A stretch of DNA of 64,000 nucleotides, from positions 160,001 to 224,000 of the forward strand of contig JBMNEZ010000001.1 of NCBI GenBank assembly GCA_050949045.1, given 5' to 3'. Shown here piece by piece: positions 24,001 to 27,000 of this stretch (position 1 is its first letter; each line of letters starts with the position of its first letter). The position numbers were made by a program. Source of the stretch: Candidatus Izemoplasmatales bacterium. Lineage in GTDB: Bacteria > Bacillota_I > Bacilli_A > Izemoplasmatales > Hujiaoplasmataceae.

Positions 24001-27000
24001 TTCCCAAAGATGATTTGATCGAGACACACGGCGAATACGAGTATGAAGAACTTTATTCCGACATCTATGTGATAATCAAAAACATTGAAGATTTTTATGG
24101 CGATCATTCCCATCCCAAAGCCGCCGCGCTCCTTGAATCTTTCTTGCTTGAGACGATGATCGTTCTTAAAGAAGATCCGGAGGTAATTGTCGTCGAATCC
24201 GGCGATTTCTTTTGCCGGTCGACGAGTTTCACTCCTGACTCTAAAGCAGTGATGCACCTTTTTGAAAATGTCGTCTGGATCAACTCGATGGCTGAACTCT
24301 ACAACCAGGCGCTCACCGATGTCGGATTGTTGCCAATGGAATTGGGAATCGGTGTCGTCACTTTCCCTCGCGAGGCGATCAATGAGGAATTGGAAGAGGA
24401 AAGATATCCCGGATCGGACATTGAATTCGACTATGGCATTGATTTTCAAAACACGGCAATGAAATTGGCGATTATCGCCAATACTGAAGGCAGGGAAACG
24501 ATTATCGTCAACGATATGGCTTATGATTTTTTGCTTGAAGTTGACAGAGCTTTCTTTGAGGAAAATCTTGTCAAGGAGTATCTCAAAGAAGAGGAAATGA
24601 CTGTGTTTCACGGGAACATCGTTACGGATGACATTTAATCAGTCAGAAACAGGAGGAAGCCATGGATTTATTCAAAAAGTGCTATGATTTCACGACCGTT
24701 GATGAGTACAAAGCGATGGGTATATATCCTTACTTTCACTCTCTTGAGACTAAACAGGATATCGAGGTGATGATGGAAGGCAAAAGGCGGATTATGATCG
24801 GCTCGAACAACTATCTCGGCTTGACTGGCGATGAGCGAGTCATCAATGCCGGCATCAAGGCGATTGCGGAGTTTGGCTCGGGAGTATCCGGCTCCCGGTT
24901 TTTGAACGGCACACTCACGACCCATATAACCCTAGAAAATGAATTGGCGGAATTTTTAAACAAAGAAGCCTGTCTCACCTTTTCGACCGGATTTCAAACC
25001 AACCTCGGCATCATTTCTGCCATCGCGGGCAGAAATGACATCATCTTTTGTGATCGGGAAAACCACGCCTCAATCTACGACGGGGCAAAACTGAGTTATG
25101 CGACCATGGTAAGATATCGTCATAACGATATGAAGGATTTGGAAAAGAAACTCAAGGAGGCTGACCCGGGCAAAGGCAGATTGATCATTACCGACGGTGT
25201 CTTTTCGATGTCCGGAGATATTTGCCGGCTTCCGGAAATCGTTGCTTTAGGCAAGAAATACCACGCCAGAGTGATGGTCGACGATGCCCATGGCCTCGGT
25301 GTGCTAGGTGAACACGGCAGAGGCACCGCCGAACATTTTAATCTTGAAAACGAAGTTGACATCATCATGGGCACTTTCTCGAAATCGCTTGCCAGCCTCG
25401 GCGGCTATATGGCAGCCGAACATGCTGTTGTCAACTATGTCAAACATAAGTCAAGACCATTTATCTTTTGCGCCGCAATCACTCCGGCAAATGCGGCGGC
25501 CGCCTTAACTTCGCTTAGAATCCTTAAAGCCGAACCGGAACGTCCGAAAGCCCTGTTGGCGATTGCCGCTTATATGCGCAAAAGGCTGCTTGAAAAAGGG
25601 CTCAAGATTCTCGAGTCTTCGATTGCCCCGATCATTCCCATATATACCTACACCGCGCTCAGGACACTCGTTGCCTGCAAGATGCTCTATGATCGCGGTG
25701 TCTATGTTAATCCGGTGTTGCCACCGGCAACCCCTGAGGGCGAATGCCTGATCAGAACAAGTTACACAGCTACCCATACCAAGGAATTGATGGATGAAGC
25801 GGCCGACATCATCGCCGACGTCCTCCATAATCTTCCCGAAAACGACGCTGAATTGTTGGGTCAACTATGAAAAGAAGTGATCAAGTAGTGGTTGTTACCG
25901 GCGCTTCCAGCGGTATCGGTCTGGAAACAGCCTCCCTTTTGTCGTCAAAAGGGATGAAGGTCTATGGATTGTCGCGCTCAAAGCCTAGAGGAAAATATTC
26001 CTTTAACCACCTCATCGCTGATGTCACCTCGATTGAGACGCTTCAAAAAGCCGCAGACCTCATCAGAGAATCCCAAGGTGGCATTGATGTGCTCATCAAT
26101 TGTGCCGGCATCGGGATTGGTGGCGCCGTCGAGGAGACCGATGAAGCAGATTATGACAATCTCTTTAATGTCAATGTCAAAGGTGTCTTTCAGACTACCA
26201 AGGTTTTTTTACCTCTGCTTCGCGAGGGAAAGGACAAGAAAATCATCAATATTGGTTCCATTGCCGGCATCTTACCGATACCTTTCCAAACTTTCTATTC
26301 GATGTCAAAGGCGGCTATCCAATCTTTTTCGGAAGCTTTGCGAAATGAACTGAGACCATTTGGTATCGAAGTGACCACCGTGCTTCCCGGAGACACCAAA
26401 ACCGCATTTACCAGTAATCGGAAAAACAATCCAATCTCAGAAGAATCCCCTTATGCCGAGAGACAAGCCCGCTCGCTCAAAAAGATGGAGATTGACGAGC
26501 AAACGGGAAAATCTCCAATATCGGTAGCCAATGTTATTTTTAAACTGATTAACAGAAGACGCTTGCCGGTCCAGGTCGCCATCGGATTTGAATACAAGCT
26601 GTTTGTCTTTTTGAACCGGATCCTGCCTAAAAGGCTGGTAAACTGGATTCTCTACCAAATATACGGAAAATGATCAACAAAACAAACAGAGCCACTTTTC
26701 AATTCTTTGTAAGGCAGAAATGTTTAGAGGGATGCGGATAGTCGCAAGAAATACCTCTGACAATTATCCATCATTATTTGAGAGTTTCTTAGAAGTCGTT
26801 TAAAACGACGTAGCGGTGTTAACGAGGAAAGTATCGATCGCCATTTAATGTCAGGGGATGTCGTCTCGAACGCTTTTTTGATAAACTGAATAATTTGTTT
26901 TCAAGAAAATTCTCATCCGAGGAGTTGTGATTGTGTACCGAAGACTGTTTGCGGACTATCTTCCTGTCAACGAACAGGAAGAAAAGGACAAGGAACTCAT

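Follow-up and report, generated by a model that had tools for sequence, protein, structure and literature searches.

Does a wall-less bacterium that has no fatty-acid synthase make its own sphingoid bases? The question is raised by two overlapping genes in the window, the whole 64,000-nucleotide stretch of DNA analysed here, which comes from a small wall-less bacterium of anaerobic digesters belonging to the Izemoplasmatales. The genome-wide survey's note had read the pair as genes for de novo synthesis of sphingoid bases, probably after gene transfer from Bacteroidota. Our analysis favours the first part of that reading. The two genes, spt and kdsR, probably form a translationally coupled module that would make sphingoid bases in the cytoplasm from scavenged fatty acids. 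The proposed origin in Bacteroidota has to be given up.

Gene structure of the locus

Both open reading frames of the two-gene unit at 24662-26673 were confirmed on the plus strand, where the stop codon of spt and the start codon of kdsR overlap by 4 nt (ATGA). The pair and the features upstream of it are as follows.

20951-21592, plus strand: TetR regulator (Pfam)
21543-23798, plus strand: fused MacB-type ABC ATPase/FtsX permease (Pfam; MacB-like)
23800-23821, plus strand: hairpin resembling a terminator, behind the ABC transporter gene (consensus scan; weak)
23889-23916, plus strand: promoter-like site in front of the three genes (consensus scan; a suggestion only)
23931-24638, plus strand: upstream gene of the likely operon, encoding an acidic protein of 235 aa with a predicted class III nucleotidyl-cyclase-like fold
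24662-25870, plus strand: spt, 402 aa, serine-palmitoyltransferase-like alpha-oxoamine synthase (open reading frame and PF00155)
25867-26673, plus strand: kdsR, 268 aa, 3-ketodihydrosphingosine-reductase-like classical SDR (open reading frame and PF00106)

The upstream gene has a ribosome-binding site and an ATG and lies 24 nt before spt. Its product has no match in Pfam or NCBIfam; an AF2 model (pLDDT 79.8) led in Foldseek to cyclases (E 3e-7, TM 0.55-0.57), suggesting a fold like that of the class III nucleotidyl cyclases. In 8 of 20 relatives' loci, each from the organism's own family, a homologue immediately precedes spt. The ABC gene (at least 57% identity) also occurs upstream of spt in 8/20 loci and the TetR gene in 5/20, again all in the own family. 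The promoter-like and terminator-like sites come from a consensus scan that found no more sites in the region than expected by chance. Short metatranscriptome contigs from four runs of four studies cover spt, kdsR and the upstream gene in part, and one of them spans the spt/kdsR overlap, although these contigs may include carried-over DNA; other parts of the stretch are without RNA contig cover. An LtaS-like gene further downstream (28312-30291) was considered as a head-group enzyme and dropped, as it is found near spt in none of the 20 relatives' loci.

Identity of the first enzyme

The product of spt contains the fold-type I PLP domain of the alpha-oxoamine synthases (PF00155, residues 46-384, 189.8 bits). 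Among the NCBIfam families, the CFB-type serine palmitoyltransferase model NF047600 scores highest (517.8 bits), followed by Kbl with 381.7 and BioF with 368.9. The protein stays below the equivalog cut-offs of all three Spt models (517.8 against 640 for NF047600, 397.9 against 500 for NF047599 and 322.4 against 670 for NF047603). These models are lineage-specific (CFB, beta, alpha), and the 30 nearest representatives are likewise below the Spt cut-offs in 30 of 30 cases. Ten of the nearest representatives are proteins from metagenomes whose clusters hold 1 to 4 members. Among solved structures the best relatives are those of the Sphingobacterium multivorum SPT (3A2B and 8GUH), which align with residues 5-387 at an E value of 2e-119. 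SPT entries score 402 and 277-292 bits, ahead of KBL/AONS (263), Kbl (241), cysteate acyltransferase (218, E 1e-63), BioF (at most 196) and CqsA (111). By these search scores the protein lies nearer to the characterised SPTs than to the remaining alpha-oxoamine synthases.

All 38 of 38 orthologues retain N49, the stacking His (H135), D208 and H210 at the PLP, the PLP lysine (K241), A271 and the carboxylate-binding Arg (R365). PMC9304779 names an Asn, a His, the PLP lysine and an Arg as the catalytic set and describes an Ala in Spt in place of Lys281 of SulA. At this marker position, 30 residues after the PLP lysine, the window's protein and its orthologues carry Ala (A271, 38/38) and the Kbl paralogue of the same genome carries Thr. 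That paralogue (C1:761503-762720) is Kbl/BioF-like and 38% identical to Spt, which bears out the survey's statement that a separate enzyme of this type exists.

The main rival reading concerns the amino-acid substrate. The synthase might use alanine, glycine or another amino acid instead of serine and would then yield a sphingoid-like amino alcohol, for example a 1-deoxy base. Alpha-oxoamine synthases can switch their amino-acid substrate, the kept residues do not discriminate users of serine from users of alanine or glycine, the score lies below the Spt cut-off, and the Black Sea study PMC11334938 proposes that Spt-like enzymes may accept other amino acids. On the other hand, the enzymes of known structure nearest to it are SPTs specific for serine, and the active-site set is identical to that of Spt. 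In addition, the pair occurs in Haploplasma axanthum, which reportedly makes a true sphingolipid. We regard a non-serine substrate as unlikely.

Public databases name the orthologues "aminotransferase class I/II" or "8-amino-7-oxononanoate synthase", and the Kbl and BioF models do reach 369-382 bits. If the first gene encoded BioF or Kbl, the neighbouring SDR would be unrelated to it. The scores are below the models' own cut-offs (TIGR00858, 368.9 against 426.45) and trail the Spt model by 136-149 bits, and this reading would give no reason for the strict coupling to the SDR gene seen in 39 of 39 loci. Searches of the genome for bioB and for bioD gave 0 matches each, and because both genes are absent, the BioF annotation makes no pathway sense; a Kbl/BioF-type enzyme is moreover present as the separate paralogue. 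We consider this reading very improbable. Equally little speaks for cysteate as the substrate, from which SulA and a reductase make the sulfonolipid base capnine in Bacteroidota: the chemistry is the same, the fold similar and the cysteate acyltransferase structure was matched, but the Lys281 that marks SulA is Ala in 38/38 orthologues and the SPT matches are far stronger (2e-119).

The second enzyme and the proposed reaction sequence

KdsR is a classical SDR (PF00106, 155.9 bits). Its best match among 211 families is NF049977 (KdsR) with 232.2 bits, below the equivalog cut-off of 400; the runner-up PRK06179 reaches 200.3 bits, so that the lead over a generic SDR family is only 32 bits. Each of the 39 sequences compared (39/39) retains the TGxxxGxG motif (G12, G16, G18) and the triad S131, Y144 and K148, and inspection of the sequence revealed no N-terminal signal peptide. 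The link between the two genes is genomic, since they are adjacent or overlapping in 39/39 loci of wall-less Bacilli.

Both the family searches and the comparison with solved structures favour Spt and KdsR over Kbl, BioF, ALAS, CqsA or SulA. In the module as we propose it, the PLP enzyme Spt would condense L-serine and a long-chain acyl thioester into 3-ketodihydrosphingosine, which the KdsR-type SDR would then reduce with NAD(P)H to sphinganine. Since the adjacent SDR would act on 3-ketodihydrosphingosine, reduction should precede N-acylation, in the order of Bacteroides and eukaryotes and unlike that of Caulobacter. A putative N-acyltransferase and head-group enzymes would complete a membrane sphingolipid. 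One point against the module is that both proteins score below the NCBIfam equivalog cut-offs, which the survey had left unmentioned. The survey's proposal of de novo sphingoid-base synthesis is upheld as far as the best families and the conserved catalytic residues go, and its support is by inference.

Distribution of the pair

In a sample of 150 other Izemoplasmatales genomes, orthologues of Spt were found in 61 of 70 genomes of the own family and in 19/70 and 0/10 of the other families, proportions that agree with those of the survey. The order spt then kdsR, which the survey had called conserved, was recovered in all 20 relatives' loci of the Izemoplasmatales. Adding 18 of 18 loci from three other Bacilli families and the window itself brings the count of adjacent pairs to 39 of 39 loci. 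Outside these groups, spt and kdsR were neighbours in 10 of 18 loci from other named Bacillota and in 6 of 16 from Bacteroidota. They are also the sole genes common to all 39 loci, and no third neighbour is conserved.

The original focus on Izemoplasmatales proved too narrow, as the pair is also present in Acholeplasmataceae and two further Bacilli families. Of the Acholeplasmataceae sampled, 21 of 31 have orthologues (identity 60-79%). In this family the pair is flanked by rpoC on one side and rpsL-rpsG-fusA on the other, and tuf and a gene of the formate/nitrite transporter family are further neighbours. Among the carriers are the cultured species Haploplasma (Acholeplasma) axanthum, H. modicum, Mariniplasma anaerobium and Hujiaoplasma nucleasis (strain zrk29). 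The H. axanthum protein WP_162140229.1 is 64% identical to the window's Spt. For Hujiaoplasma nucleasis, lipid metabolomics listed PE, PG, PC and PS, and sphingolipids are unmentioned in the text and four supplements, which counts against the proposed module. The pair was not found in two families of the same class, both large and made up of very small genomes (0/55 and 0/89), which we take to be mycoplasmas.

Evolutionary origin

The survey had measured 52% (Spt) and 39% (KdsR) identity to the proteins of Bacteroides thetaiotaomicron. Our values for Bacteroidota loci agree with this: 46-52% for Spt in 16 loci and 36-41% for the six KdsR-like genes adjacent to spt in Bacteroidales/Bacteroidia. 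In 16 of 18 loci from other named Bacillota, however, Spt identity is 57-70%. As judged from these sequence comparisons, about 52% identity to Bacteroides is simply how far apart phyla generally are in this family.

In a tree of 98 rows, the sequences of the wall-less Bacilli are nested in a Bacillota clade of 33 rows (SH-aLRT 98) that takes in Clostridiaceae, Hungateiclostridiaceae and Bacilli MAGs, and the 16 Bacteroidota rows form a separate clade with a support of 100. Forcing the wall-less Bacilli together with Bacteroidota cost 214 lnL units and was rejected by the AU test (p-AU 2.9e-6). Acquisition of the pair by Izemoplasmatales through transfer from Bacteroidota could appeal to the best curated family being a CFB-type model and the best solved structure coming from Sphingobacterium. 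Against this stand the nearest named relatives, which are other Bacillota, the nesting in the Bacillota clade and the rejection of a joint clade. The position of the Acholeplasmataceae pair between rpoC and the rpsL-rpsG-fusA genes and the GC content of the pair, which at 0.47-0.50 is close to the 0.44 of the genome, likewise argue against it. We therefore reject the survey's suggestion and see almost no room left for such a transfer. Instead, the module would be old and mostly vertically inherited in the free-living wall-less Bacilli (Izemoplasmatales, Acholeplasmataceae), and common to many other Bacillota.

Acyl supply and N-acylation

The genome lacks both the FASII condensing enzymes and the Mur ligases, in keeping with a wall-less organism that scavenges fatty acids. 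FabH gave 0 matches, and the lone ketoacyl-synthase match is a thiolase. As no fatty-acid synthase is present, the acyl chain for Spt must be scavenged. The survey had reported FabH as absent and FakA and DegV as present, and all three statements held: the genome has FakA and five DegV genes, and in addition PlsX, AcpP (above its cut-off) and two acyl-CoA-ligase-like genes. The single ACP gene lies at C1:739089-739358, beside hisS and dtd. Two routes to an acyl thioester are conceivable. FakA and DegV may deliver acyl-phosphate, which PlsX would convert to acyl-ACP; alternatively, a FadD-like ligase may form acyl-CoA. The survey was correct with regard to the missing FabH, and for the acyl-donor problem that it raised these genes offer ordinary candidate answers. 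PMC9304779 argues that acyl-ACP is the natural donor of bacterial Spt-type enzymes, which would suit a scavenger of the FakAB/PlsX type.

The survey had found no candidate for a ceramide synthase, and the same was true here for the families searched. PF13444 gave 0 matches in the genome. The sole match to PF13480, the family to which we infer that bCerS belongs and which the Caulobacter control matched, is a FemAB-like gene inside a glycan cluster and was discarded. No bCerS-like GNAT was found in the fakA-recG-plsX-rnc region. Two of three PlsC-family paralogues of 380-406 aa, AT2 and AT3, were compared with spt for co-occurrence across 150 genomes of the order, and neither tracks it. True orthologues of AT2 occur in only 2 genomes, both of the own genus, and homologues at 30-35% identity are found in the spt-free family as well (9/10). 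AT3 is present in 31/70, 27/70 and 0/10 genomes of the three families; it is missing in spt-positive genera and present in spt-negative ones.

Significance

According to the survey, a genetically defined sphingolipid pathway in the Bacillota/mollicute branch would be new. This claim is weakened by Haploplasma (Acholeplasma) axanthum, which reportedly makes a phosphosphingolipid and carries the pair. A sphingolipid of this species was reportedly described chemically in 1970. Literature searches returned no report linking Spt to Izemoplasmatales, Acholeplasma or Mollicutes, nothing on the A. axanthum sphingolipid and no genes linked to its chemistry. The taxa of Spt-like MAGs from 38 phyla are given in the supplements of PMC11334938, and Bacillota may already be included there.

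If the pair works as we read it, it would supply the missing genes for the decades-old Acholeplasma sphingolipid. Sphingoid-base synthesis would then be an inherited trait of the wall-less Firmicutes branch and of many Clostridia and no speciality of Bacteroidota, and the widespread public misannotation of the first gene would be corrected. We put forward, as possible rather than probable, that free-living, sterol-independent wall-less Bacilli (Izemoplasmatales, Acholeplasmataceae) use scavenged fatty acids to build sphingolipids, which would serve to order the one naked membrane that bounds their cells, and that an N-acyltransferase unrelated to bCerS and to eukaryotic CerS completes them. 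The absence from the families of very small genomes would fit with the pathway having been lost when sterols and sphingolipids could be taken up from a host. Such a pathway would point to a ceramide synthase yet to be discovered, and it would offer a simple system for studying bacterial sphingolipid function, with a single membrane, without wall and fatty-acid synthesis, and in cultured species.

Comparison with known systems

The pathway of Caulobacter crescentus (Spt, bCerS, CerR, a dedicated ACP and an acyl-ACP synthetase) shares the first enzyme family and the product class, the ceramide backbone. CerR is of the epimerase type, whereas the window's reductase is a classical SDR without export signal, and none of an epimerase-type CerR, a dedicated ACP, an acyl-ACP synthetase or a bCerS-like gene was found within 10 kb on either side of spt. 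Compared with the Caulobacter pathway as outlined in 10.1101/2023.11.08.566215, the order of steps probably differs. SulA of Alistipes finegoldii has the same fold and catalytic cycle (PMC9304779), but its diagnostic Lys281 is Ala in the window's Spt.

The SPT of Sphingobacterium multivorum shares the PLP-binding and substrate residues with the window's Spt. It belongs to another phylum, is about half identical, and its activity has been shown, whereas the window's enzyme is known from its sequence.

Bacteroides thetaiotaomicron employs the same two enzyme families (NF047600 and NF049977), at loci that we take to be BT_0870 and BT_0972, and the same presumed order of condensation followed by reduction of the free base. 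In some Bacteroidales the two genes are adjacent as they are in the window. The systems differ in sequence, at the Bacteroidota identities given above and in separate clades, and in their hosts, since the window's organism, unlike Bacteroides, is wall-less, has a single membrane and scavenges fatty acids.

Haploplasma axanthum, finally, is a wall-less relative from the same class with an orthologous spt-kdsR pair. There a sphingolipid is said to have been described by chemistry, whereas the window's organism is known here from its genes.

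The spt-kdsR pair and the family assignment of its products

The spt-kdsR pair is real and conserved, and it is probably functional. The genome-wide survey's note had described two open reading frames on the plus strand, and both are present at exactly these positions, with the stop of spt and the start of kdsR overlapping by four bases:

23931-24638, + strand, upstream gene, 235-aa product without a Pfam or NCBIfam match
24662-25870, + strand, spt, open reading frame of 402 aa
25867-26673, + strand, kdsR, open reading frame of 268 aa

The spt product is a full-length fold-type I PLP enzyme (PF00155), and its top NCBIfam family is NF047600, the CFB-type serine palmitoyltransferase, with 517.8 bits versus 381.7 for Kbl, 368.9 for BioF and 219 for CqsA. 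The nearest solved structures are those of the Sphingobacterium multivorum SPT (3A2B/8GUH, E 2e-119), followed by Sphingomonas-type SPTs (E 1e-81 to 7e-86) and then by Kbl, cysteate acyltransferase (E 1e-63) and BioF. The kdsR product is a classical SDR (PF00106) for which NF049977 (KdsR) tops 211 families at 232.2 bits, leading a generic SDR family by only 32 bits. Both products stay below the equivalog cut-offs (517.8 versus 640 bits for NF047600, 232.2 versus 400 for NF049977), and these sub-cut-off scores had been omitted from the survey's account.

The SulA paper (PMC9304779) names Asn53, His140, Lys251 and Arg376 as conserved. In our alignment of 38 full-length spt-product orthologues from wall-less Bacilli, the equivalents N49, H135, K241 and R365 as well as D208 and H210 are invariant in 38/38. 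All 38 have alanine at the position 30 residues past the PLP lysine, where the Kbl-type paralogue of the host genome has threonine. In the kdsR product, 39/39 sequences retain Ser131, Tyr144 and Lys148 along with the glycine motif; inspection of the product's sequence revealed no signal peptide, thus the reduction would be cytoplasmic.

DNA of the window occurs in anaerobic-digester and bioreactor metagenomes. Metatranscriptomes of biogas fermenter and bioreactor sludge (four runs, four studies) yielded 12 contigs of 151-385 nt with 95-100% identity. They map to spt, kdsR and the gene upstream of the pair, and one crosses the spt/kdsR overlap. These contigs say nothing about strand, ends or level, and DNA carry-over is possible in RNA libraries; they are a weak hint that the three genes are transcribed.

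Conservation and gene neighbourhood in Izemoplasmatales

In a sample of 150 other Izemoplasmatales genomes, Spt matches fall cleanly into two groups, orthologues with at least 70% identity and the Kbl-type paralogue with about 40%. The window's own family has orthologues in 61/70 genomes (5 of the 61 are cut by contig ends), a second family in 19/70 and a third in 0/10. The proposal that spt followed by kdsR is a conserved unit held for every relative's locus fetched, kdsR being located directly 3' of spt in 20/20. Clustering of every ORF left spt and kdsR as the sole genes common to all 39 loci. Frequent upstream neighbours, seen in the own family only, are the gene for the 235-aa protein, which has no known family (8/20), a fused MacB-type ABC transporter (8/20) and a TetR gene (5/20).

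An alignment of nine members of the 235-aa protein's family revealed invariant D44, TP, IN, GIG and HGN motifs and, in 6/9, a variable insert rich in Cys, His and Glu. The AlphaFold model (pLDDT 79.8, pTM 0.78) resembles the class III nucleotidyl cyclases cUMP synthase 7R65, CyaC and Cya2 (E 3e-7 to 1e-6, TM 0.55-0.57). Since the second metal-binding Asp position is not conserved across the family, the protein may be a cyclase-like domain that is divergent or lacks catalytic activity. The gene is tied to the sphingoid pathway by position only, and in one family only.

Two further loci were noted in the window. Upstream of the spt region, and kept there in several relatives, is a complete-looking histidine utilisation operon (14286-20718, + strand) with genes for an aromatic amino acid (histidine) ammonia-lyase, urocanase, formiminotransferase, an imidazolonepropionase-like amidohydrolase and cyclodeaminase. 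At 28312-30291 (- strand), a 659-aa sulfatase-family protein with weak similarity to LtaS (lipoteichoic acid synthase) is encoded in this genome without Mur ligases; the gene is not retained near spt in relatives.

Carriers beyond the order

A phylum-level sample of 400 scored genomes, each at least 90% complete, was searched with an orthologue threshold of E <= 1e-95. Spt orthologues (60-79% identity) were found in three further families of the same class, with 21/31 genomes in Acholeplasmataceae and 4/42 and 3/3 in the other two, and none were found in 306 genomes from 24 further families of this sample. Two large families among these 24, with genomes of 0.7-1.2 Mb, gave 0/55 and 0/89. The two genes adjoin in 18/18 loci fetched from the three families, with reversed gene order in the 3/3 family. 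One genome of the latter (locus L062, G363:C15:131266-144171) has spt in two frames, 6001-6918 and 6894-7151, which could reflect a frameshift, a damaged gene or faulty assembly.

Exact look-up identified as named carriers Haploplasma (formerly Acholeplasma) axanthum, Haploplasma modicum, Mariniplasma anaerobium, 'Tenericutes bacterium MZ-XQ' and Acholeplasmataceae MAGs and, inside Izemoplasmatales, Hujiaoplasma nucleasis. Spt is publicly annotated in all of them as an aminotransferase or BioF only; bioB and bioD have no match in the window's genome, so that there the name BioF has no pathway behind it.

In Acholeplasmataceae the pair is flanked by rpoC and rpsL-rpsG-fusA-tuf (L045-L055), and a formate/nitrite-transporter-family gene comes after it in 7/11 loci. 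The rpoC and rpsL-rpsG-fusA-tuf setting does not suggest a recent arrival. In the mollicute Acholeplasma axanthum, a phosphosphingolipid was reportedly characterised chemically by Plackett, Smith and Mayberry in 1970. Our literature search found no paper mentioning this lipid, which may be tied to the Haploplasma axanthum pair.

Evolutionary origin

Among 1.84 billion proteins, the closest cluster representatives of the spt product are only 55, 54 and 52% identical to it, and in 30/30 scanned representatives the CFB model was the best one, yet below its cut-off. Many metagenomic near relatives are fusions of 777 to 2140 residues (proteins P0128, P0138, P0143, P0151, P0159, P0163 and P0188), in which the synthase domain sits at either end.

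Named genomes were scanned with a query alignment headed by the 52% representative, and the best 80 of at least 600 stretches were kept. These 80, all 53-70% identical to that representative, come from Planctomycetota, Nitrospirota, Zixibacteria, Chloroflexota, Bacillota, Bacteroidota, Verrucomicrobiota, Spirochaetota and others. Within these best 80, the 16 Bacteroidota loci share 46-52% identity with the spt product, compared with 57-70% for 16 of the 18 Bacillota loci and about 50% for the remaining two.

The survey's note had proposed transfer from Bacteroidota, a hypothesis set before the tree was calculated, so that the test of it was fair, and the present data reject it. In the main tree (IQ-TREE, 98 rows, single matrix LG+G4, quick search), whose named sample is the best 80 of at least 600 matches to one query and whose root lies on one long outgroup branch, the 17 wall-less rows nest in a 33-row Bacillota clade (SH-aLRT 98) together with Hungateiclostridiaceae, Clostridiaceae and Bacilli MAGs. 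Bacteroidota is represented by 16 rows, which make up a separate clade (support 100); this clade groups (97) with Verrucomicrobiota and with single rows from Thermodesulfobacteriota and Aquificota. Forcing wall-less and Bacteroidota rows together lowered the log-likelihood by 214 (p-AU 2.9e-6). The same arrangement, less well supported, had appeared in a previous FastTree built with unnamed representatives.

The wall-less part of the tree roughly tracks families. The rows of one Bacilli family (L056, L057, L058 and L059) are scattered in both the FastTree and the IQ-TREE trees, two within the window's own family, one within Acholeplasmataceae and one beside a Clostridia MAG. This suggests either that the pair was sometimes transferred among these lineages or that the family is not a natural group.

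Acyl supply and missing steps

The host genome is a single contig of 1,356,138 bp (44.3% G+C, 98.3% completeness), and the public names carried by near-identical proteins assign it to Candidatus Izemoplasmatales. It has zero matches to FabH, its sole ketoacyl-synthase-domain match is a thiolase (TIGR01930, 465 bits) and its sole Mur-ligase-domain match is FolC (TIGR01499, 372 bits), which fits a wall-less fatty-acid scavenger. FakA is encoded in the usual fakA-recG-plsX-rnc arrangement, and five DegV genes, PlsX, one AcpP (above its cut-off) and PlsC are present. Two AMP-binding enzymes have long-chain-fatty-acid-CoA ligases as top families, with scores below cut-off. For the acyl-donor problem raised by the survey, the scavenging genes offer two ordinary candidate routes: acyl-phosphate would be converted by PlsX to acyl-ACP, or an acyl-CoA ligase would provide the donor. 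According to the argument of the SulA paper (PMC9304779), bacterial enzymes of the Spt type naturally take their acyl chain from acyl-ACP.

No ceramide synthase was found in the host genome. PF13444 has no match there, and the sole match to PF13480, which we infer to be the bCerS family, is a FemAB-like gene within a glycan cluster. This cluster of the wall-less genome (L148, G000:C1:381000-391000, outside the window) contains UDP-glucose dehydrogenase, epimerase, GT4, polysaccharide deacetylase, the FemAB-like gene, a MurJ-like flippase and an O-antigen-ligase-like/GT fusion. Three PlsC-family paralogues of 380-406 aa are encoded outside the window on the genome's contig:

G000:C1:814331-815551, PlsC-family paralogue
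G000:C1:963532-964680, PlsC-family paralogue
G000:C1:13421-14617, PlsC-family paralogue

They have a Cys-rich C-terminal part with CxxC motifs and no family name; the PlsC-type acyltransferase domain is above cut-off in two and weak in the third (19.9 bits, below). As ceramide synthase candidates, the two that were profiled were rejected: their occurrence in the order is patchy and does not track spt across the 150 genomes.

For Hujiaoplasma nucleasis, a published lipid metabolomics study reports PE, PG, PC and PS, and its text and four supplements do not mention sphingolipids, which is silence and not a negative test.

Comparison with known routes

Spt-like genes have been published from MAGs of 38 phyla (PMC11334938); the main text of that study names neither Bacillota nor Izemoplasmatales. 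The pair is valuable chiefly for its link to cultured wall-less species, where the chemistry is checkable, and for the acyltransferase that is missing. In the Caulobacter route, as described in 10.1101/2023.11.08.566215, Spt is followed by bCerS and then by the periplasmic CerR, and the window's module is unlike this route. It would instead operate like the Bacteroides route to sphinganine, in which Spt is followed by KdsR, whereas by descent it belongs to a Bacillota lineage of the Spt and KdsR enzyme families.
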